From Paracoccaceae bacterium (GTDB taxonomy: Bacteria; Pseudomonadota; Alphaproteobacteria; Rhodobacterales; Rhodobacteraceae), in NCBI GenBank assembly GCA_031398695.1, contig JANNNU010000127.1, positions 12,011 through 76,010 on the forward strand: a stretch of 64,000 nucleotides of DNA, read 5' to 3'. This document shows positions 12,374 to 24,603 of this stretch, piece after piece (within the stretch, counting starts at the first letter, position 1; each line of letters begins with the position of its first letter). The translations under genes and the position numbers were made by a program. The notes beneath the pieces are model-generated. The model was not told the origin of the DNA, searched no databases, and saw only the letters and a program-made list of their open reading frames with translations.

Positions 12374-14379
12374 CTACCGACCCGCACGCGGGCTGTCGCC
12401 TGCACTCCACCGGCGATAGGGGCGCGATGGCGGGCCGTAATCGGTCTCGACCGCAACCCGACGGCCGACGCCGCCGATCAGATCGGGAATCAGCGTCACC
12501 AGCTCGATCAGGCCTGCGTGGCCCAGCGAGCGCAAGGCGACGGGTCCGGGATACAGGGTTTCGGTCGGGATGCCTTCGGTAAACACGATCTCGTGCCGGT
12601 CGCACAGGACATGCACATAGGTGACGGTCTGCGCCTTTTCGTCGATCCGAAGGGCCGGACGGCTCCAGGCTTGCACCAGATGCTTGGCGCGGACCAGCGC
12701 GCCGTTGACCAGAAAGCCGTGCTGCGGCGACACGCGGGTCGTCCGACCGTTGCCAAGCGCGCCCTTGCGCAGCATCACGGGCCGCAGATCGGGCCGTGCC
12801 GCAAGATCGGCAGCGTCCAGCGTGCGGCATCCGACCCAGCGGACCGGCTGATCGCCATGATCCAGCGTGCGCACCCGGTGACCGGGGCGCAACCGTTCGA
12901 CGGAAACCGGGCCTGCGTCCGTGGCGATCTGCACGCCGGGGGTGAAGCAGGGAATGCCTGCGGCGTTCAGCCTGCCCGGTGCCTGCGCCTGCACCGGACT
13001 GACGCCTTGCAGCGTGATCGTCTCGATACCCGGAAAGTTCAGCACCGCATTGCCGAACCCGTCATCGGTCACGACGATGTCGAACACCCGGACCGCCGAG
13101 CCGTTCGGGTTCTGCAGATCCGAAACGTCGAACTGGTCGTTGTTCAACCCGTCCCCGTCAGCATCCCCCAGATCGAAATCGGTGACGACATCGCGGCCCG
13201 ATCCGGTTTCGAAGCGAAACTTGTCGTTTCCCGCGCCGGCGTTGCCCGACAACTGCACCGCGGTCGTGTTGGCTGCGGCGTTCATCGTGTCGGTATAAGC
13301 GGTGCCGTAGACACCATCGTTCCCGGTAAAGTCACCCGAAGCATCGTTCATGCCGTTGAACCCGTAGGTGCCCGCGTCGTTTCCGGTGAAGGTCACGGTG
13401 ACGCCATCCGTGCCGATGTAGTTGCCGAACTCGATCCGGTCGAAGTCGCCGGTCTCTTCGCCGCCATAAGCCGAGTCGATCTGGTGATCCTCGCTGACCC
13501 ACATCACGTCATTGCCCGTGCCGCCGTAGACCTGATCCTTGCCTGTCCCGCCGGACAGCTGATCATTGCCCGCGTCGCCGTGGACCTGGTCTTTGCCACC
13601 GGCACTGATCAGAGTGTCATCGCCGTCGCCGCCATACACCGTGTCGTCGCCGCCATAGGTGTTCCAGTCGCCAAACCGGTCGTGGCCCGCCCCGACAAAG
13701 AATTGTTCGTTGCCATCGCCCCCCGAGGCGCTGTCGGCGCCGTCACCGGCATAGATCGCATCGTTGCCGCCGCCCGCGGCGACCGTGTCGTTGCCGGACC
13801 CGGCGGTGATACTATAAATGCCGGTCGAAATCTGGTCGCCCTGCGCGTCGGTATACCCAACCGCCATCGAATTCGCCCCGGCGGTTCCATCCACCATGGC
13901 CTTGAAATCGCCCGCAACCCGGTCCGCCTACATGTCGCCGCTGTTGCTCACGACACTGTTCAGCGTCAGCGACTGGATGGGCTTTGCGGTCAGTGCCACC
14001 TGATCGGCGTTGTTCGTCTCTTCCGGAACCAGATACGTGTTACCATTCACGTCCTGCATGACGGTGGCGGGATGACGGCGGTGGTGCCGTCTTCATAGGT
14101 GATGGTGGCGTTGCAGGTCGCCACGGCGTCGAAATTCTGCGGCGTGACGCCGTTGATCCGGAACTAGTCGAAGCCACCGCCATTGTCGGTGTCATAGCTG
14201 GCGTTGTCTTCCTCGCTCATCCGATCGGCCGTCAGGTTGCGGACGTTGCTGCTGAGCGGGGCCGTGCTGGAGCCGTGTGTGCCCAGCAGGACGCCCGCGT
14301 TTTAGGCGACTTCATTGTTCTGGGTCGGGTCGATCTTGGTCAGCGTTCCCAGAAAGATGACTTCGTAACTGGTCGCCAT
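12374..14379 (-). pseudogene. RTX calcium-binding repeat + C-terminal Hint (Hedgehog/intein-like) domain protein, 5' region disrupted
   Basis: The minus strand ATG at 14379 opens MATSYEVIFLGTLTKIDPTQNNEVA*NAGVLLG... Four lesions follow: an in-frame TAA (14304-14302), a TAG (14166-14164), a frame change near 14066-14073, and a TAG (13930-13928). After them comes the intact 507-codon ORF 13897-12374, with GGxGxD nonapeptides and the Hint motif CFTPGVQIATDAGPVSVERLRPGHRVRTLDHG. Confidence 0.8.
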
Positions 14380-14597
14380 GCGGGTGGGGTGCCTTTTGTC
14401 GTCTGATCCTTCAATGGCGACGGCCGTCACGGCCCGCGCAGCCTGACAGCCGGACAGGATGTGTTAACATCCGCAAAACGGGAACGGCACTTTTGCCACG
14501 CGGTCATGGCGGTGGCGCAGGGCGGCGCGTCAGCGGTCGCAGGGTTTCAGGGCCGGGGGAAATGGCCCATTGGCAGGTCCGAAACCCGGATCCGCGT

Positions 14598-15680
14598 CTA
14601 TCGCACCTTCAGCGTGGCCAGTCCGATCATCGCGAGGATCAGGCTGATGATCCAGAATCGGATCACGATCTGCGGTTCTGCCCAGCCCTTCTTTTCGAAA
14701 TGGTGATGGATCGGTGCCATCAGAAACACCCGCTTGCCGGTGCGCTTGAAATACAGCACCTGGATGATGACCGACAGCGCCTCGACGACGAACAGGCCAC
14801 CGACGATGGCAAGGACGATCTCGTGCTTGGTGCAGACGGCGATCGCCCCGAGGGCACCCCCAAGGGCAAGGCTGCCGGTGTCGCCCATGAACACCGCTGC
14901 TGGGGGTGCGTTGTACCACAAAAAACCCAGCCCGCCGCCGAACAGGGCCGCCGCGAACACCAGCAACTCGCCGGTGCCCGGCACGAAGTGCACGCCAAGG
15001 TAGTCGGCAAAGTTCGCGTTGCCGACCACATAGGAAATCACGCCCAGCGTGCCGCCCGCGATCATCACCGGCATGATGGCAAGCCCGTCGAGCCCATCGG
15101 TCAGGTTCACGGCATTGGCCGACCCGACGATCACCACCATCCCGAACGGAACGAAGAAGATCCCGAGGTTGACGAGAAGGTTTTTGAACAGCGGCAAGGC
15201 CAGCTGGTGCGTCAGCTCGACCGGATGAAAGCTGGCGGCAGCATAGGCGGCAAGCCCCGCGATCCCCAGACCGGCGATGAACCGGACGCGCGACGAGACG
15301 CCCTTGGTGGTCTGCTTGGTCACCTTGGCATAGTCGTCGGCAAAGCCGATCAACCCGAACGCCAGCGTCACCAGCAGCACGATCCACACGTAAGGCGTGT
15401 CGAGCCGGGCCCAGACCAAAGTCGAAAACACCAGCGCCGACAGGATCAGCAGCCCGCCCATTGTCGGGGTTCCAGCCTTGACGAAATGGCTGGCGGGACC
15501 GTCGTCGCGGATCGGCTGGCCCTTGCCCTGCTTGCGGCGCAACAGGTCAATCAGGGGGCGGCCAAAGATGAATCCGAACACCAGCGCGGTCAGAAAGGCG
15601 GCCCCGGCGCGAAAGGTGATGTAGCGAAACAGGTTGAAAAAATCGCCCCCCGCAGAGAACTCGGTCAGCCAGTACAACAT
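14598..15680 (-). CDS. mraY: phospho-N-acetylmuramoyl-pentapeptide transferase
   Basis: 360-aa polytopic protein with a canonical MraY sequence (MLYWLTEF...[10 protein letters not shown]...HHHFE), in dcw context. Confidence 0.95.
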
Positions 15681-18610: not shown

Positions 18611-20404
18611 CTACTGCTTGACGGCTGTTAAGGCATCCAGCGGGGCAAGTTCAACCTGTGGCCGCAGACCCAGAAGCGGGGCGGTGCGGCGGATGATCTC
18701 GGCGGCGACCGGCACGGCCGTCCAGCCAGCGGTGCGGCGCGGTTTAGGTCCAGTGGTTTCCACCGGTTCGTCCAGCGACACGATCAGAACATAGGCCGGG
18801 TCGTTGGCCGGAAAGACCGACGCGAAGGTGTTGATCACCTTGTCGTCGTAATAGCCGCCGCCACGACGCGGCTTGTCGGCGGTGCCGGTCTTGCCCGCGA
18901 CGGCATAGCCCGGCACCTCGCCAAAGCTGGCAGTGCCGTCGGTGACCACACGGCGCAGCATGGCGGTGGCCGCAGCGGACGCCTGTGCGCCAAGGACACG
19001 CTGTTGCGGCGGGCGCGTGGTGCCCTGCAGCAGGGTCGGCGTCACCTTGAATCCGCCATTGGCGATGGTGGCGTATGCGGCGGCGAGGTTCAGCGGGCTG
19101 GACGACATGCCGTGGCCGTAGCTGGCGGTGATCGTCACGATGTCGGGCCATTTCGGCGGCAGCAACGGCTTGACCTTGGGGGCCTCGGCCAATTCGACCG
19201 GCGAAGGGTCCATCAGGCCAAGCGCGCGCAGGAACGCCTGCTGTCGTTCGCCGCCGATCATCAGCGCGATATGCGCGGTGCCGACGTTCGAGGATTTTGC
19301 GATGATATCGGACACCGACAGCAGCGGGCCGTAGTTCTTGCCTTCGAATTCCTTGATCTTGTGCTTGCCCCAATACATCGGCGCATTGGCATCGACCATG
19401 GTTTCTGGCCCGACAAGGCCAAGGTCCATGCCTTGGGCGGCCGCGAATATCTTGAACGTGGACCCCAGTTCGTAAAGCCCCTGCACCGCGCGGTTGAATA
19501 GCGGGCTGTCGCCGGGTTCGGCATCCTTGGGCAGGATCGGGTTGGGGCGGTCGTTGGGATCAAAGGTGGGATAGGACGCCAGCGCCACGATTTCACCCGT
19601 ATGCACGTCCATCAGGATGCCTGCGGCCCCCTTGGCGTTCATCATCACCATGCCGGTCGACAGGATCTCTTCCATCGCAGCCTGCACGGTCAGGTCGATC
19701 GACAGTGTCAGCGGCGTGGTGGCCTGGGCGGGGTCGCGCAGGCGGGTGTCCATCGCAAGCTCGATCCCGGCCGTCCCGATCACCTCGGCCGAGCGCACGG
19801 ATTCGTCACCGAACGCCGCCCCGCCCAGCACGTGCGCGGCCAGGGTGCCGTTGGGGTAAAGCCGCATTTCGCGCGGGCCGAACAGCAGGCCGGGATCACC
19901 TATGTCATGCACCGCCTGCATCTGTTCGGGCGACAGCACCCGGCGCAACCACATGAAACTGCGCCCGTCCTTGAAGCGGCGTTCCAGATCGGGTGCCTTC
20001 ATCTCGGGGAAGATCGCCGCCAGTTGGGCCGCAGTGCCCGCCGGGTCGATCATGTCCTTGGGATGGGCATAAAGCGCGTGGGTCAGCATGTTGGTGGCCA
20101 GCACCCGGCCATTGCGGTCGAGGATGTCGGCGCGGGTCGCGCTGACCTCGGCCCCGGCCCCGGCGCGGCGCGGTTCGGTCGGGACCGAGGCCGCCAGCGT
20201 GCCCATCTGCAATCCGATGGTGGAGAAAGCCGCGATGAACCCCGCCGACAGCATCAAAAGCCGCAACTGCGCGCGGGTGCGGGCGCGGTCGCGGGTGACC
20301 TCGTTGCGCAGACGCAAGTTCTCGCGTTCGATGCCGTCGGGGTTTTCGCCCTTGGCGCGGGCTTGCAGGATACGGGCCAGCGGGCGCAGAGGGGTGCGGG
20401 TCAT
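18611..20404 (-). CDS. ftsI: peptidoglycan D,D-transpeptidase (PBP3)
   Basis: 597 aa with an N-terminal TM segment, a PBP dimerisation domain and a transpeptidase domain with STFK, SSN and KTGT motifs. Confidence 0.9.
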   Translation of the reverse strand: MTRTPLRPLARILQARAKGENPDGIERENLRLRNEVTRDRARTRAQLRLLMLSAGFIAAFSTIGLQMGTLAASVPTEPRRAGAGAEVSATRADILDRNGRVLATNMLTHALYAHPKDMIDPAGTAAQLAAIFPEMKAPDLERRFKDGRSFMWLRRVLSPEQMQAVHDIGDPGLLFGPREMRLYPNGTLAAHVLGGAAFGDESVRSAEVIGTAGIELAMDTRLRDPAQATTPLTLSIDLTVQAAMEEILSTGMVMMNAKGAAGILMDVHTGEIVALASYPTFDPNDRPNPILPKDAEPGDSPLFNRAVQGLYELGSTFKIFAAAQGMDLGLVGPETMVDANAPMYWGKHKIKEFEGKNYGPLLSVSDIIAKSSNVGTAHIALMIGGERQQAFLRALGLMDPSPVELAEAPKVKPLLPPKWPDIVTITASYGHGMSSSPLNLAAAYATIANGGFKVTPTLLQGTTRPPQQRVLGAQASAAATAMLRRVVTDGTASFGEVPGYAVAGKTGTADKPRRGGGYYDDKVINTFASVFPANDPAYVLIVSLDEPVETTGPKPRRTAGWTAVPVAAEIIRRTAPLLGLRPQVELAPLDALTAVKQ

Positions 20405-20763
20405 GGAACGCCTTCCTGTGTCCCGATAACATCGACCGGGTTCGCGATCTCGGGGATGCTTTCATAAAGCGCGGGCGGCAGCGGGTAGGCGACCTGCGCC
20501 GCGGTGCCCAGCTGGTGCGGCTCCAGCGGCAGCAGACCCAGCGCGTCGAAGTTCAGCGTGACCAGTTCGCGCAGGCGCTGGGGGCGGTTCAGGTAGGCCC
20601 ACTCCGCCCGCTGGATTGCCAGCGCGTCCTGCAAGGCGTCAATGCGATGCTCAAGCGCGTTGCGGTCGCGGATGGCCTGTTGCGTCGCGTAGTTCTCGCG
20701 GTAGGCCCAGAAGGCGAGCGCCATCACGGCAAGGGTGCTGGCGATGTAAAGCAGCGCACGCAT
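20401..20763 (-). CDS. ftsL: cell division protein FtsL-like
   Basis: 120-aa bitopic coiled-coil protein between rsmH and ftsI. ATGA overlap with ftsI. Confidence 0.7.
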   Translation of the reverse strand: MRALLYIASTLAVMALAFWAYRENYATQQAIRDRNALEHRIDALQDALAIQRAEWAYLNRPQRLRELVTLNFDALGLLPLEPHQLGTAAQVAYPLPPALYESIPEIANPVDVIGTQEGVP

Positions 20764-20765
20764 GG

Positions 20766-21776
20766 TCAGCGTCGTCCTTTCCGTAGTTTCTCGGGCAGCA
20801 CCGGCACCCCCAGCGCCGCGTCGTCGGCGCGACCGGCGGGGGCTGCGGTGCGAAAGCCCACGCGCAACTTGGCCGAACGCGACCGGGGGTTTTCGGCAAG
20901 TTCGGCCTCGTCCGCGGTCACGGCACGCTTGGTCTTCAAGGTAAAGCGCGGCGCATCCTCGGCGCGTTCGGGGGCATAACGGTTCGTATTCGCCTCGCCC
21001 CCCGAACGCAGCTGGAAAAACCGTTTGACGATGCGGTCTTCCAGACTGTGGAACGTGACGACTGCCAGCGCGCCGCCCGGTTTCAAGGCGCGCTCTGCCG
21101 CGGCAAGGCCTGCGGCCAGTTCGGCAAATTCGGTGTTCACCGCGATGCGGATGGCCTGGAAGGCACGGGTGGCCGGGTGACTTTGACCCGGTTTGGGCCG
21201 GGGCAGCACGGACGAGATCACGTCGGACAGGCGCAGGGTGGTGATGATCGGGTCGATGGCGCGCGCCCGGACGATGGCGGCGCTGATCCGGCGCGAGGCG
21301 TGATCCTCGCCGTAAGCATAGATGATGTTGGCAAGGGTTTCCTCATCCGCGCCGTTCACCAGATCGGCCGCCGATGAACCGTCCTGCGACATCCGCATGT
21401 CGAGCGGCCCGTCCTTCTGAAACGAGAATCCCCGCTCCGGTTGATCGAGCTGCATCGACGACACCCCAAGGTCCAGCACGACGCCGTCGAGCGGCGCATA
21501 TGCCGCCAGGTCCGAAAAGGTGCCGTGGACAAGGTTCAGGCGATCACCGAACCCGCCTGCCCAGGACGCGGCCATGTCAAGCGCCTGCGGGTCGCGGTCG
21601 ATGCCGATCACCCTGTCCGCCCCCGCGTCCAGCAAGCCGCGCGCATAGCCGCCCGCGCCGAACGTGCCGTCCAGCCAGATGCCCGTAACAGGCGCTACAG
21701 CGGCTAGCAGCGGGCGCAACAGCACCGGAACGTGGGGGATGCGACCGGGCTCGGGATCGCCAACGGTCACGGTCAC
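20766..21776 (-). CDS. rsmH: 16S rRNA (cytosine1402-N4)-methyltransferase
   Basis: HVPVLL...[10 protein letters not shown]...[11 protein letters not shown] are MraW/RsmH signatures. Overlaps the mraZ stop. Confidence 0.92.
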
Positions 21777-22294
21777 CGTCCCGTTTTGTACTTGCTGACG
21801 CGCACAAGAGGATCTTCGTCGTCTTCCTCTTCCTCGTCGTCCATCGCGGCGAGTTCGGCGGCAAGAACCTCTTGGCGATACAGCTTGAACCGGTTCGACA
21901 CCCCGGCAAAGCTGGCCATCCCGCCCTTTTCCAGATCGTCGCCGACAAAGCCCATCTTTTCGCGCACAGGCGGCGGCAGCACGATGCGGCCGTCGTCGTC
22001 GATCTCGACCGTCGCCGACAGCATGATCAGGTCACGTTCCGCGCGCAGACGGTCTTTCGACCCCATCGGCATCGCATCGACCTCGGCGGCCAGCACCTCG
22101 GCCCCGGCAACGGTATAACATTCTACGAAATTGCGGGTCTTGCCGCCATAGACCATGACAATGCGGGTTTTCGGTGCATCGGCGGTCACGGGATCTTCGA
22201 GGTCAAGCTTGCGGCGGAGGGCGGCGGGGATCGAGACCCGTGCCTTGCTGTCCACTTTCTGGTGGAAGGTCCCTCTGAACGCCTCGGTTGACAT
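21773..22294 (-). CDS. mraZ: transcriptional regulator MraZ
   Basis: [25 protein letters not shown] and a second SpoVT/AbrB-like repeat ([16 protein letters not shown]). First gene of the dcw cluster. AAGGAG lies upstream of the ATG. Confidence 0.9.
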
Positions 22295-22333
22295 GGGCCT
22301 TTCGGCTCCTTAAGTTTTAGTCGTAAAACCCTG

Positions 22334-22382
22334 CAATAAAAGGGAATAGGCGGATCGGGCTGCTGCCACTGCCCGATCCGCC
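22334..22382 (-). terminator. intrinsic terminator inside the mraZ leader
   Basis: Perfect 12-bp stem GGCGGATCGGGC / GCCCGATCCGCC (22349-22360 / 22371-22382) with a 10-nt loop. On the minus strand it is followed by TATTCCCTTTTATT (22348-22334), about 40 nt before the mraZ ATG. Confidence 0.6.
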
Positions 22383-22556
22383 ACTGTCCCGTCTCCGGGC
22401 GTCCATGCACACGCGCCACCTGGGGGAGATGCTGCTCGCCCGCGTGCCGGATCTCTTAAACTTCGATGGGACGGCTGCCTGTATGAGCCTGTCTTTTTGT
22501 TCGCCTGTTCGGGGTCTTCGGCCGCCCCTGCCTTATTTTCCGTCCCATCGTTCGTG
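22334..22556 (-). ncRNA. UpsM-like leader-derived sRNA (5' leader of the dcw operon); 5' end is only estimated
   Basis: The 3' end is the leader terminator above. An 11-nt perfect inverted repeat (22464-22474 / 22540-22550) can close an internal domain. No ORF is present. Size and position match what I recall for R. sphaeroides UpsM upstream of mraZ. Confidence 0.5.
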
Positions 22557-22561
22557 AGAAA

Positions 22562-22606
22562 AGGGATGCCATGGGATCACATGGTAATCAATGGAAAAAT
22601 TTGGAC
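22562..22606. promoter_or_regulatory. five direct repeats with exact 10-bp phasing (candidate MraZ operator / dcw promoter region)
   Basis: The plus strand reads AAGGGATGCC ATGGGATCAC ATGGTAATCA ATGGAAAAAT TTGGAC. GG recurs at 22563, 22573, 22583, 22593 and 22603. A possible -35 TTGATT lies on the minus strand at 22591-22586. Confidence 0.4.
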
Positions 22607-22965
22607 AGAGGGTGCGAAATCTTGTGTGACACATCTCTGTTACGCAGCATCTGGTGTCCGCGATGCCCAGATATAGGCAAATTTCAGCCTTCACGCGGGC
22701 GTGACCGCTAGATGTTGTTTGGGGGAATTCTCGAGCCTACGACGGCTCCGGCCGAAAGAACTTCCAGAACGTGTTTCGTCCTGCGCCCACTGACGCGCCC
22801 ATGCGCCGAGAATCGGCAGAAACCCAGACTTTCGCCTCGGTTTTCCCAGTTCATCCCATGAAAAGTGATTCGCCGCAGACGCCGTCCCATCCAATCCCAG
22901 ACCACTGACCTGTCAGGCCCGCCGGGATCGGTCGCGCCGGGTTGCCCCGCGCGTGTCGGCCGCGA

Positions 22966-24033
22966 TCAGGCCATCCCGCCCGCAACCAGTCGCGCGGCGA
23001 GACGGGCATAGGCGTCGGCGATCGGCCCTTGCCCCGCGGCGATCGGAACCCCCGCATCGCCGGCCAGCCGCACGTCCAGCGACAGCGGAATTTCCCCAAG
23101 AAACGGCAGGTCCAGCTTGGCCGCCTCGGCCGCCACGCCGCCGTGGCCAAAGATGTGGGCCTCGTGACCGCAGTTGGGGCAGATGTAGGTCGACATGTTT
23201 TCCACCAGCCCCAGCACCGGCGTCTTGAGCTTGACGAACATGTCGAGCGCCTTGCGCGCGTCCAGCAGCGCCACGTCCTGCGGGGTGGAAATCACGATCG
23301 CTCCGGTCAGTTGCGTGCGCTGGCACAGGGTCAACTGAATGTCGCCGGTGCCGGGCGGCAGATCGACGATCAGGATGTCGAGCCGCCCCCAGTCCACCTG
23401 CGTGATCAGTTGTTGCAGCGCGCCCATGATCATGGGGCCGCGCCAGATCACCGCTTCGTCTTCTTTCAGCATCAGGCCGATCGACATCAGCGTGACGCCA
23501 TGCGCGTGCAGCGGCTCGATCGTCTTGCCGTCGGGGGACGCCGGACGCTTGCTGACGCCCATCATGCGCGGCTGGCTCGGGCCATAGATGTCGGCATCCA
23601 GCAGCCCCACGCGGCGGCCCTGCCGCGCAAGCGCCACGGCGAGGTTCGAGGCCAGCGTCGACTTGCCGACACCGCCTTTGCCGGAGGCGATGGCAATGAT
23701 GCGGTCCACGCCGGTGACGCGCTGCGGGCCGCCCTGCTGCGGGGTCGGATGCTGACCGATCTTCAGGCTGGGGGCTTTTTGCGCCGGGCCATGCGCGGTC
23801 ATCACCACCTGAACGCCCGAAACGCCCGGCAGCGCCCGCAAGGCGGCCTCGGCAGCCGCCTGTGCCGGAGCGAGCGCACGGGCGGCCTCTGCATCGGGCG
23901 CCTCGATCACAAAGCGCACCTGACCATCCTCGACCGACACGGCACGAATCAGGTCCGCCGCGATCAGCGACCGCCCGTCCGGCGTAGAGATCCGGGACAG
24001 AACCCCGGTCACGTCGTCGCGCGTCACGGACAT
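22966..24033 (-). CDS. apbC: Fe-S cluster carrier ATPase (Mrp/ApbC/NBP35 family)
   Basis: N-terminal DUF59-like domain, deviant Walker [13 protein letters not shown] and a CPNCGH motif. Start at ATG 24033, preceded by GGAG. The track start at 24105 is an extension. Confidence 0.9.
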
Positions 24034-24199
24034 CGGTTTCTCCTTCGCATCGGTTTTGTGCAAGGTTGTGCGGATTGACACAAAGGGCAAGGGCTGCTTT
24101 ACCAAACGCTCAAAAATTCAGCGAAGCGCCTGTTTTTCTTGAAATATTTGTAAACAAGAGCCATGCGGTCGCTGCATGGCAGCAATGCGGTGCAGATCA

Positions 24200-24228: not shown

Positions 24229-24301
24229 TGCCCTAACAGAACAGCAGGACTGTCCGGAACGATCCGGCGCGCTGATCTGAGAAAAGAATGTGAGGCTGAG
24301 A

Positions 24302-24517
24302 ATGGCATATGTGAACAGCACCCGTGTGGGCACCAATGGTCTGGCAGATCGCTTTGCCGCGATCGTCAAGGCAATTCGGCTGGCGGCACAGCGTCGGGCG
24401 ATCTACGATCGGACCGTGCGCGAACTGAACGGGCTGACCAACCGCGAATTGGCGGACCTGGGCATCGCCCGGTTGAACATCGAAGACGTGGCACGCGCCG
24501 CGGCTTACGGAAAATAA
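24302..24517 (+). CDS. ccaF1: small DUF1127-domain protein (CcaF1-like RNA-binding protein)
   Basis: 71 codons, MAYVNSTRVG...RELNGLTNRELADLGIARLNIEDVARAAAYGK, with the typical DUF1127 C-terminal pattern. Immediately followed by the CcsR-type sRNA array. Confidence 0.8.
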   Translation: MAYVNSTRVGTNGLADRFAAIVKAIRLAAQRRAIYDRTVRELNGLTNRELADLGIARLNIEDVARAAAYGK

Positions 24518-24526
24518 GGTTTTTGT

Positions 24527-24603
24527 CCGGCCTCCACCTCCTCCCGGGGGCCCATGACAAGCGCGGCGGTGCTTTTCCTCCTCCCTGGCGCCGCCGCTTT
24601 TTC
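24527..24603 (+). ncRNA. ccsR1: CcsR-type (cuckoo family) sRNA unit 1
   Basis: Two hairpins with CCTCCTCCC in the loops (24537-24545 and 24577-24585). Stems are 24529-24535/24546-24552 and 24563-24572/24588-24597. A T5 run lies at 24598-24602. Confidence 0.75.

Follow-up and report, generated by a model that had tools for sequence, protein, structure and literature searches.

A probable UpsM orthologue in the mraZ leader of a Paracoccaceae bacterium

Introduction

UpsM represents the best-studied case of a cell-division operon that is controlled via its own leader RNA. In Rhodobacter (Cereibacter) sphaeroides, the 5' untranslated region (UTR) of mraZ, a gene belonging to the cluster for division and cell wall (dcw), measures 268 nt and is transcribed from one promoter, and a strong Rho-independent terminator within this UTR, some 60 nt ahead of mraZ, gives rise to a 206-nt small RNA (sRNA), UpsM, with read-through in about one of 100 transcription events (Weber et al. 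2016, PMC5089854). The RNA folds into four regions, R1 to R4, of which R1 has a closing stem of about 11 nt; it was first described as an orphan intergenic sRNA, and such leaders were described as a feature of Rhodobacteraceae (PMC5089854). UpsM associates with Hfq and is highly abundant during exponential growth. A second sRNA, StsR, pairs with nt 1-22 of UpsM and opens the 5-15/72-82 stem, whereupon RNase E cuts UpsM, and likewise the read-through dcw leader, near nt 78, and the 130-nt 3' product acts on the mraY and ftsW mRNAs (Gruetzner et al. 2021, PMC8266604). Here, we analyse the region upstream of mraZ in a 64,000-nt stretch of contig JANNNU010000127.1 from a Paracoccaceae bacterium (this whole stretch is called the window), which very probably contains an orthologue of UpsM.

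Two other described systems resemble this locus in part. Like UpsM, SreA and SreB of Listeria monocytogenes are 5' leaders of premature termination that also serve as trans-acting sRNAs; they derive from S-adenosylmethionine riboswitches (PMC5089854). The window leader has no known or detectable ligand aptamer and no Rfam match, and it is related to SreA and SreB neither in sequence nor in structure. The mraZ1p/Pmra promoter of Escherichia coli and the promoter in the window are both the first promoter of a dcw cluster and both carry phased 10-nt repeats of the TGGG type, which is consistent with autoregulation by MraZ. However, the mraZ1p/Pmra leader measures 38 nt and has neither an internal terminator nor an sRNA, whereas the window leader would be about 260 nt long and highly structured.

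Results

An authentic UpsM reference was sought by scanning metagenome contigs for one published primer (a 19-nt pattern). Eight of the ten matches were unrelated chance occurrences, and UpsM loci were recovered only in L049 and L054. The former, referred to below as the Cereibacter locus, carries all nine published R. sphaeroides UpsM/mraZ primers, exact and in order, and its MraZ is 99% identical to a protein named Cereibacter johrii MraZ at NCBI. In its coordinates, mraZ begins with a GTG at 2827, the published transcription start falls at 2559 in the motif CTCAC/GAG, and UpsM spans 2559-2764. The element of the window was identical to this UpsM at 174 of 203 aligned positions (86%); the MraZ proteins of the two loci share 47% amino-acid identity. 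As in R. sphaeroides, the element immediately precedes mraZ on the mraZ strand, with no gene in between (element 22554-22336, mraZ ATG at 22294), and the host belongs to the family in which such leaders are known (Rhodobacteraceae, now Paracoccaceae). Homology, structure, covariation, gene position and promoter architecture, all computed here, lead us to regard the segment from 22554 to about 22340 (minus strand) as very probably an orthologue of the dcw/mraZ leader sRNA UpsM, whose function would carry over from R. sphaeroides.

When the 671-bp intergenic region was compared by blastn with 44 related loci of Paracoccaceae/Rhodobacterales, one block, approximately 22611-22338, was found to be conserved at 70-87% nucleotide identity. 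Its conservation persisted in genomes whose MraZ is merely 36-42% identical to that of the window, and it was much lower in the DNA farther upstream and in the 40-55 nt between the hairpin and mraZ. A noncoding block that is better conserved than the protein following it points to a functional RNA or DNA element.

This block was also recognized by a covariance model derived from 42 leaders of other species, with the window and its two nearest relatives left out. Within the window, the model gave one full-length match (22334-22550, minus strand; 175.6 bits, E = 4e-44, model positions 1-216 of 216), and the only other match with E < 0.01 scored 24 bits and fell on the hairpin on the opposite strand. 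The comparison was extended to 56 sources covering at least 10 named genera, including 11 extra loci that brought in genera such as Gemmobacter, Fertoebacter, Pseudogemmobacter and Falsirhodobacter as well as further Cereibacter species; each of the 56 gave a single full-length match to the model (155-221 bits), located about 40-60 nt upstream of mraZ. Rfam covariance models, run in both gathering and permissive modes, yielded no family for the leader locus. The best E-value matches were spurious and concerned the hairpin (mir-4018, 23.6 bits against a gathering score of 66), and a riboswitch or another Rfam cis-regulatory family was rejected, as no model reached its gathering score at the locus.

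One locus was excluded from the RNA alignments on account of an internal deletion in the element. In this Cypionkella metagenome-assembled genome (MAG; L010, 2150-2486), about 25 nt are missing, a gap that begins where the conserved CAUACAGGCA ends and reaches as far as R2, which is probably an artefact of MAG assembly or binning.

The minimum free energy (MFE) folds of the window RNA and of the Cereibacter UpsM are alike, comprising the R1 multiloop with its long closing stem, R2, a 4-bp R3 and R4 (Table 1). The preliminary description of this DNA had proposed an UpsM-like leader of the dcw operon and had recommended an alignment with the R. sphaeroides mraZ upstream region. Its proposal is borne out by the 86% identity that this alignment gave with the Cereibacter UpsM, by the sole full-length covariance-model match and by the shared R1-R4 fold, and its account of the R. 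sphaeroides leader, UpsM, StsR and RNase E agrees with both papers (PMC5089854, PMC8266604).

Two inverted repeats belong to this structure. The first, a perfect 12-bp repeat with a 10-nt loop (22349-22360/22371-22382), forms a hairpin of -28.8 kcal/mol (z = -5.1; 0/200 shuffles as stable), while the second, a perfect 11-bp repeat (22464-22474/22540-22550) with arms 65 nt apart, closes a domain that folds with -30.0 kcal/mol (z = -3.1). The preliminary description had placed both at these coordinates, the former followed on the mraZ strand by UAUUCCCUUUUAUU and the latter enclosing a domain of about 65 nt with a GGGGC...GACCCC hairpin. A repeat search recovered them exactly, together with the enclosed hairpin (GGGG at 22527-22524, CCCC at 22514-22511), and the approximately 670 bp given for the region preceding the mraZ ATG at 22294 was measured as 671 bp (22295-22965). 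Inside R1, UCAUACAGGCA (22486-22476) is nearly invariant. The first six bases of the R4 loop, AGUGGC, and the stem-closing C that precedes them are invariant, and the remainder of the loop is at least 90% conserved. By homology, the 12-bp stem is R4, an UpsM-type intrinsic terminator at which transcription would end, and the 11-bp repeat is the closing stem of R1, the predicted counterpart of the R. sphaeroides 5-15/72-82 stem that hides the RNase E site. All four regions of UpsM, namely R1 with its stem of about 11 bp, R2, the 4-bp R3 and R4, are therefore represented in the window.

Table 1. Coordinates of the leader elements and genes in the window. Positions of promoter elements and of the transcription start are homology-based.
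Feature	Position	Strand	Remarks
Candidate -35	22586-22591	minus	TTGATT; TTG invariant in 45 aligned loci
Three phased boxes	22561-22585	minus	ACCAT-N5-CCCAT-N5-CCCTT; 10-nt period, between -35 and start
Transcription start	22554 (+/- 1-2 nt)	minus	By homology; C of CTCAC/GAA, aligned to Cereibacter CTCAC/GAG
R1	22464-22550	minus	11-bp closing stem (22550-22540 with 22474-22464); GGGG/CCCC hairpin 22527-22511
R2	22402-22451	minus	Long hairpin with C-rich apical loop CAUCUCCCCCAGG; MFE fold
R2 5' strand	22444-22453	minus	GAUCCGGCAC; candidate antiterminator strand, core GAUCCG the same as the terminator 3' arm core
R3	22388-22399	minus	4-bp hairpin CCCG-GAGA-CGGG; in window and Cereibacter folds
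R4, predicted terminator	22336-22382	minus	12-bp stem 22382-22371/22360-22349 and interrupted U-tract UAUUCCCUUUUAUU
mraZ ribosome-binding region	22295-22310	minus	AGGAG (22310-22306), then hairpin GCC-GAAA-GGC; ATG at 22294
mraZ	21773-22294	minus	Pfam MraZ match and open reading frame table
rsmH	20766-21776	minus	dcw cluster
ftsL	20401-20763	minus	dcw cluster
ftsI	18611-20404	minus	dcw cluster
murE, murF	between ftsI and mraY	minus	dcw cluster
mraY	14598-15680	minus	Final dcw gene in the window
Mrp/ApbC-type Fe-S ATPase	22966-24105	minus	Upstream neighbour of mraZ, same strand

Covariation supports this fold in each of its regions. RNAalifold predicted 35 pairs from 45 sequences, 14 of them with compensatory changes; in the model-guided alignment of 56 sequences, 98.8% of cells were paired and 16 of the 35 pairs showed double changes. 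None of 500 shuffles matched any of the five measures, slid controls were only 34-46% paired, and a MAFFT alignment yielded the same picture. The inner hairpin of R1 displays a G-C to C-G compensation, the consensus helices of R2 carry compensatory changes in 6/12 pairs (56 sequences), the closing pair of R3 covaries (A-U in 43, G-C in 10 and C-G in 1 sequences), and R4 shows compensatory changes in 8/15 pairs, with 99.6% of cells paired. Since MAFFT misaligns the variable arms of R1, its closing stem was assessed without alignment, by testing the first 26 nt of each RNA against its own 3' arm or one swapped between species. Cognate arms gave a mean of -17.45 kcal/mol and swapped arms -12.3 kcal/mol, a difference reached by 0/5000 permutations. 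The arms themselves diverge widely among clades; for example, the window has CGAUGGGACGG/CCGUCCCAUCG, Pseudorhodobacter CGGAAGCGAGAGACGG/CCGCUUUUUUGCUUCCG and Roseinatronobacter CAAGAUAGACGGG/CCCGCUUAUCUUG. As cognate arms outpair swapped ones, the R1 closing stem is a conserved, covarying feature; R1 had been judged "hardly conserved" from a smaller sequence set (PMC5089854). The 56 leaders thus place the R1-R4 structure, and with it the closing stem of R1, on a firm footing.

These results also bear on a further explanation, in which the hairpins would have arisen by chance as inverted repeats of GC-rich intergenic sequence or would serve to terminate the apbC-like gene. GC-rich DNA does give many short inverted repeats, and several other pairs of 9-10 nt occur in this very region, but conservation, covariation and the covariance-model results rule out chance. 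A terminator of the apbC-like gene is contradicted by the position of the hairpin, which is separated by 584 nt from the upstream apbC-like stop codon and, in all genomes examined, is found shortly before mraZ. The block conservation, the model match and the covariation refute this explanation, to which we assign a negligible probability.

With regard to the promoter, the candidate -35 aligns with TTGCGT of the Cereibacter locus and lies at -37 to -32 from the homology-based start, and the region between -35 and start has the same layout and a closely similar sequence in Cereibacter. With a start near 22554, the leader would be about 260 nt long and the sRNA about 210-215 nt. Alternatively, the element could be a free-standing, fully terminating sRNA gene, with the mraZ promoter situated downstream of the hairpin or elsewhere. 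UpsM was itself initially regarded as an orphan intergenic sRNA, and the terminator hairpin is highly stable. Nevertheless, the approximately 40-55 nt between the U-tract and the ATG exhibit no promoter-like conservation in 45 loci, upstream fragments of 188 nt and 67 nt had no promoter activity in R. sphaeroides, and 5' rapid amplification of cDNA ends from mraZ maps to the UpsM start (PMC5089854). We therefore consider a separate sRNA gene very unlikely and retain the reading of the element as an mraZ leader.

The three phased boxes between -35 and start read AGGGA/TGGGA/TGGTA on the other strand. Box 2 (TCCCAT) shows no or almost no variation, conservation of box 1 (CCA) reaches at least 90%, and the layout is shared with Cereibacter. 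The repeats bound by MraZ in E. coli are TGGGN. In Bacillus subtilis they are GTGG[A/T]G with 4-nt spacers (bioRxiv 10.1101/2022.02.09.479790). The 10-nt phasing and the core of the promoter boxes match these MraZ-binding repeats, and autorepression by MraZ at the UpsM promoter via the putative boxes is a reasonable inference from their sequence. MraZ-type boxes are not mentioned in PMC5089854 or PMC8266604.

Pairs of TGGGA-N5-TGGGA also occur at 22899-22885 and 22858-22844, 290-345 nt upstream of the predicted UpsM start. They are oriented opposite to the promoter boxes, which constitute an 18-nt, 78% inverted copy of the upstream ones (22570-22587/22843-22860, repeat search), and similar pairs are found at varying distances in relatives, including Cereibacter. 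These pairs may be extra MraZ operator sites or aids to DNA looping.

Several further motifs between apbC and the UpsM promoter (about 22650-22870 in the window; -60 to -330 in L001-L044) are conserved across genera. They comprise CGAATCAC, which contains GANTC and in some clades forms the 5' arm of a hairpin followed by a T-run, the palindromic CACTATATMTAGYG near -160, and CCTATATCTGG, CCAAATGCTG and ACAAGAT near -120, -95 and -65, respectively, and could be regulator sites or a second promoter. GTTC-N7-GTTC, presumably the alphaproteobacterial LexA-box pattern, is located about 150 nt upstream of the UpsM start in three loci of the Roseinatronobacter clade (L030, L031, L041); L036 and L037 have it with one mismatch, and it is absent from the window.

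Another possibility is that read-through is governed by leader-peptide attenuation, in which translation of a small open reading frame (ORF) running through the terminator would be coupled to read-through. R. sphaeroides possesses such a small ORF of 55 codons, with its ATG just 5' of R2 and weak reporter activity (PMC5089854), and in the window a 29-codon ATG ORF (22406-22317) continues in the same frame through the hairpin. However, the window has no counterpart of the R. sphaeroides start codon, and in-frame ATGs upstream of the hairpin were limited to 14/46 loci, at inconsistent positions of which several are upstream of the transcription start. The ORF was stated by its discoverers to be confined to R. 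sphaeroides (PMC5089854), where replacing its ATG with CTG shifted the expression downstream by less than 1.5-fold (PMC8266604). Moreover, the leader is conserved at the level of nucleotides and base pairs and not with codon periodicity. The lack of a conserved start codon across 46 loci largely refutes this explanation, which we regard as highly improbable; the small ORF overlapping the terminator, an accessory and non-defining feature of UpsM, has not been recovered in the window.

A regulated attenuator was given more weight. The R2 5' strand (22453-22444; family form GAUCCGGC(A/G)C) shares its core with the terminator 3' arm and can therefore pair with the terminator 5' arm. Its partner strand, GUGGCGGAUC (22384-22375), consists of this arm and the preceding 2-3 nt. 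The pairing, which could act as an antiterminator, comprises 6 bp, a fixed G.G mismatch and a further 2-3 bp (3 bp in the window). Of the 56 sequences, 54-55 retain the whole core and 51-54 the two pairs after the mismatch. Compensatory G-C to A-U events are observed twice, once in the clade of Pseudorhodobacter and once in that of the window, and in the latter the terminator's own outermost pair simultaneously becomes U.U. None of 500 shuffles reached the double-change cell count or the covariation score, and slid controls were 1.5-40% paired. When nascent RNAs were folded up to the terminator loop, the alternative helix was part of the MFE structure in 36/44 distinct sequences, including those of the window and of Cereibacter; for the latter, the fold with the helix has -64.6 kcal/mol, against -59.4 kcal/mol. 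An R2-R4 interaction costing 15.9 kcal/mol has been reported for R. sphaeroides (PMC5089854), and the window value is 16.2 kcal/mol.

Nevertheless, each of the two strands is under constraint from its own hairpin already, and their complementarity could be a by-product. There are two independent events only, the number of covarying pairs is reached by 90/500 shuffles, and one genome (L056) breaks the helix, with 6/10 pairs kept. The nascent alternatives of the window lie 0.6 kcal/mol apart (-66.3 versus -65.7 kcal/mol with the canonical R2 base), and in the full-length RNA the terminator fold is favoured by 16.2 kcal/mol. The R2-R4 interaction was concluded not to be conserved in the consensus fold (PMC5089854), and the antiterminator has no known ligand or factor. 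In this model, a protein, sRNA or ligand bound to the R2 3' strand or to the C-rich loop would set the level of read-through; the model is compatible with the element being an UpsM orthologue and would add a further layer of control. An antiterminator of this kind is possible but tentative; the pairing is conserved yet weakly supported, and we present it as a testable hypothesis and not as a finding.

By analogy with the published R. sphaeroides work, termination, read-through, Hfq binding and processing by StsR and RNase E would be expected in the window organism. Transcription would be initiated near 22554 from the single promoter, and the nascent RNA would fold as R1-R2-R3. The majority of polymerases would then stop at R4, releasing the sRNA, whereas a minority would read through about 45 nt more into mraZ-rsmH-ftsL-ftsI-murE-murF-mraY. 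Owing to the R1 stem, its 3' arm and the AU-rich stretch next to it (22474-22455) would stay double-stranded or shielded; this stretch, GAAGUUUAAGAG, is found directly 3' of the stem. Under stress or in stationary phase, a trans-acting sRNA (StsR in R. sphaeroides) would bind the 5' arm and expose the region to RNase E, whose cleavage would destabilize the read-through dcw mRNA and free a 3' product of about 125-130 nt containing R2-R4.

Several observations weigh against the window element being an UpsM that works in this manner. A generic sigma-70 scan called no promoter anywhere in 21700-23100, so the promoter is placed by homology, and a generic terminator scan did not call the R4 hairpin, because its loop exceeds 8 nt and its U-tract is interrupted. 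A search of both strands of the window for an StsR-like partner of the UpsM 5' end provided no candidate, its matches being the element's own antisense, its own 3' arm and a 13-nt sense-strand identity at 24507-24519. Since the UpsM 5' arm differs between clades, pairing with StsR would moreover require a co-varying StsR. Finally, the perfect 11-bp R1 duplex of the window is calculated at -23.2 kcal/mol, against -15.7 kcal/mol in Cereibacter, and may thus be harder to open. On the other hand, the -10 region is non-canonical, and both scans are uninformative for these alphaproteobacterial signals. In R. sphaeroides, the terminator studied by experiment shares both features, a loop of more than 8 nt and an interrupted tail, GCUUUCGUUUCC; the R4 hairpin, for its part, is strong and homologous to it.

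The 13-nt string ACGGAAAAUAAGG is present at 22531-22543 (minus strand) and at 24507-24519 (plus strand), where it covers the stop codon of the DUF1127 gene and the start of CcsR1. It is shared in the same sense, is not complementary and is not conserved in the UpsM of the nearest relatives; its sharing is probably due to chance.

The conserved terminator loop was also considered as a seed for dcw mRNAs. Its complement, CTGCTGCCACTG, has six sense-strand matches with up to 2 mismatches in mraZ to mraY of the window, and 20 in the whole window against 7.8 expected. This candidate was rejected, as the enrichment did not recur in the 44 other loci, in which the density was 0.23 per kb downstream and 0.20 per kb in the upstream gene, and the recurrent match in ftsL corresponds to a conserved L-(L/M)-P-L codon run.

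The genes that follow the leader form the first part of the dcw cluster on the minus strand. Past mraY the cluster breaks off, and murD, ftsW and later dcw genes are not part of the window content. Beyond mraY (side region 12374-14598, minus strand) lies a gene for a protein with a Hint domain and RTX repeats (12374-13897), followed by an aminotransferase gene, an HpcH/malyl-CoA-lyase-like gene and genes for succinyl-CoA synthetase-type CoA-ligase subunits. On the other side, a DUF1127 ORF of 75 amino acids (24290-24517, plus strand) is followed directly 3' by the sRNA CcsR1 (24519-24602; Rfam RF02791, 71.9 bits against a gathering score of 65.3). A DUF1127 gene followed by a CcsR cluster is what we take to be the R. 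sphaeroides arrangement, a pairing presumably typical of Rhodobacter relatives.

In a collection with one genome per species, the nearest MraZ loci belong to two MAGs, one of Paracoccaceae (88%) and one of Rhodobacter sp. (74%), which identifies the host as a member of Rhodobacteraceae/Paracoccaceae. In the protein collection, the best MraZ cluster is 98% identical, with no exact match among the matches listed; the host is thus apparently a further, uncultured lineage of Paracoccaceae.

Between the Shine-Dalgarno sequence and the ATG of mraZ, a GCC-GAAA-GGC hairpin with a GNRA-type loop was noticed, with partial pairing to the Shine-Dalgarno sequence. Relatives have GCC-GCAA-GGC, GCC-GCAG-GGC, GGCC-GGAA-GGCC or GGGC-GAAA-GCUC at the same site, which suggests that the mraZ ribosome-binding site carries a conserved structure.

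Discussion

This study revealed that the leader upstream of mraZ in the window closely resembles that of R. sphaeroides (PMC5089854, PMC8266604). Position, strand, R1-R4 fold and promoter layout are the same, the terminator loop differs by one base, and the predicted sizes are similar, with about 260 versus 268 nt for the leader and about 210-215 versus 206 nt for the sRNA. The upstream neighbour, an Mrp/ApbC-type ATPase, is likewise the same and was seen in most of the extra loci viewed. One difference concerns R1, whose closing stem is a perfect 11 bp in the window (-23.2 kcal/mol) but an interrupted 11-12 bp in Cereibacter (-15.7 kcal/mol), and whose enclosed domain is about 9 nt longer in the window. 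In addition, the start codon of the small ORF is absent, the outermost terminator pair is U.U, and the dcw cluster, unlike that of R. sphaeroides, is cut short past mraY.

Leaders across Rhodobacteraceae and the mechanism in R. sphaeroides have already been published, and the gain here is incremental. The window shows the UpsM device intact in an additional Paracoccaceae lineage. Beyond the published work on UpsM, this analysis adds the MraZ-box-like promoter repeats, the finding that the leader ORF is not conserved, and a conserved candidate antiterminator. The comparative set of 56 leaders, together with a working covariance model for an RNA that has no Rfam family, provides support for R1-R4, candidate MraZ operators and a testable antiterminator model. 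With regard to annotation, the intergenic region merits a label as a noncoding RNA or as a 5' UTR with attenuator rather than being left blank.

A broader and rather doubtful proposal is that the UpsM leader is not a fixed leaky terminator but a conserved multi-input switch, combining the R2 antiterminator with looped autorepression by MraZ. Whenever its 3' strand or the C-rich loop is occupied, R2 would sequester the terminator 5' arm with its 5' strand, and the three promoter boxes, together with the inverted copy in the pairs 255-320 bp upstream, would permit looped autorepression by a MraZ oligomer. If this is true, these two inputs and StsR/RNase E would place three separate control points on one 260-nt leader, Paracoccaceae-wide.

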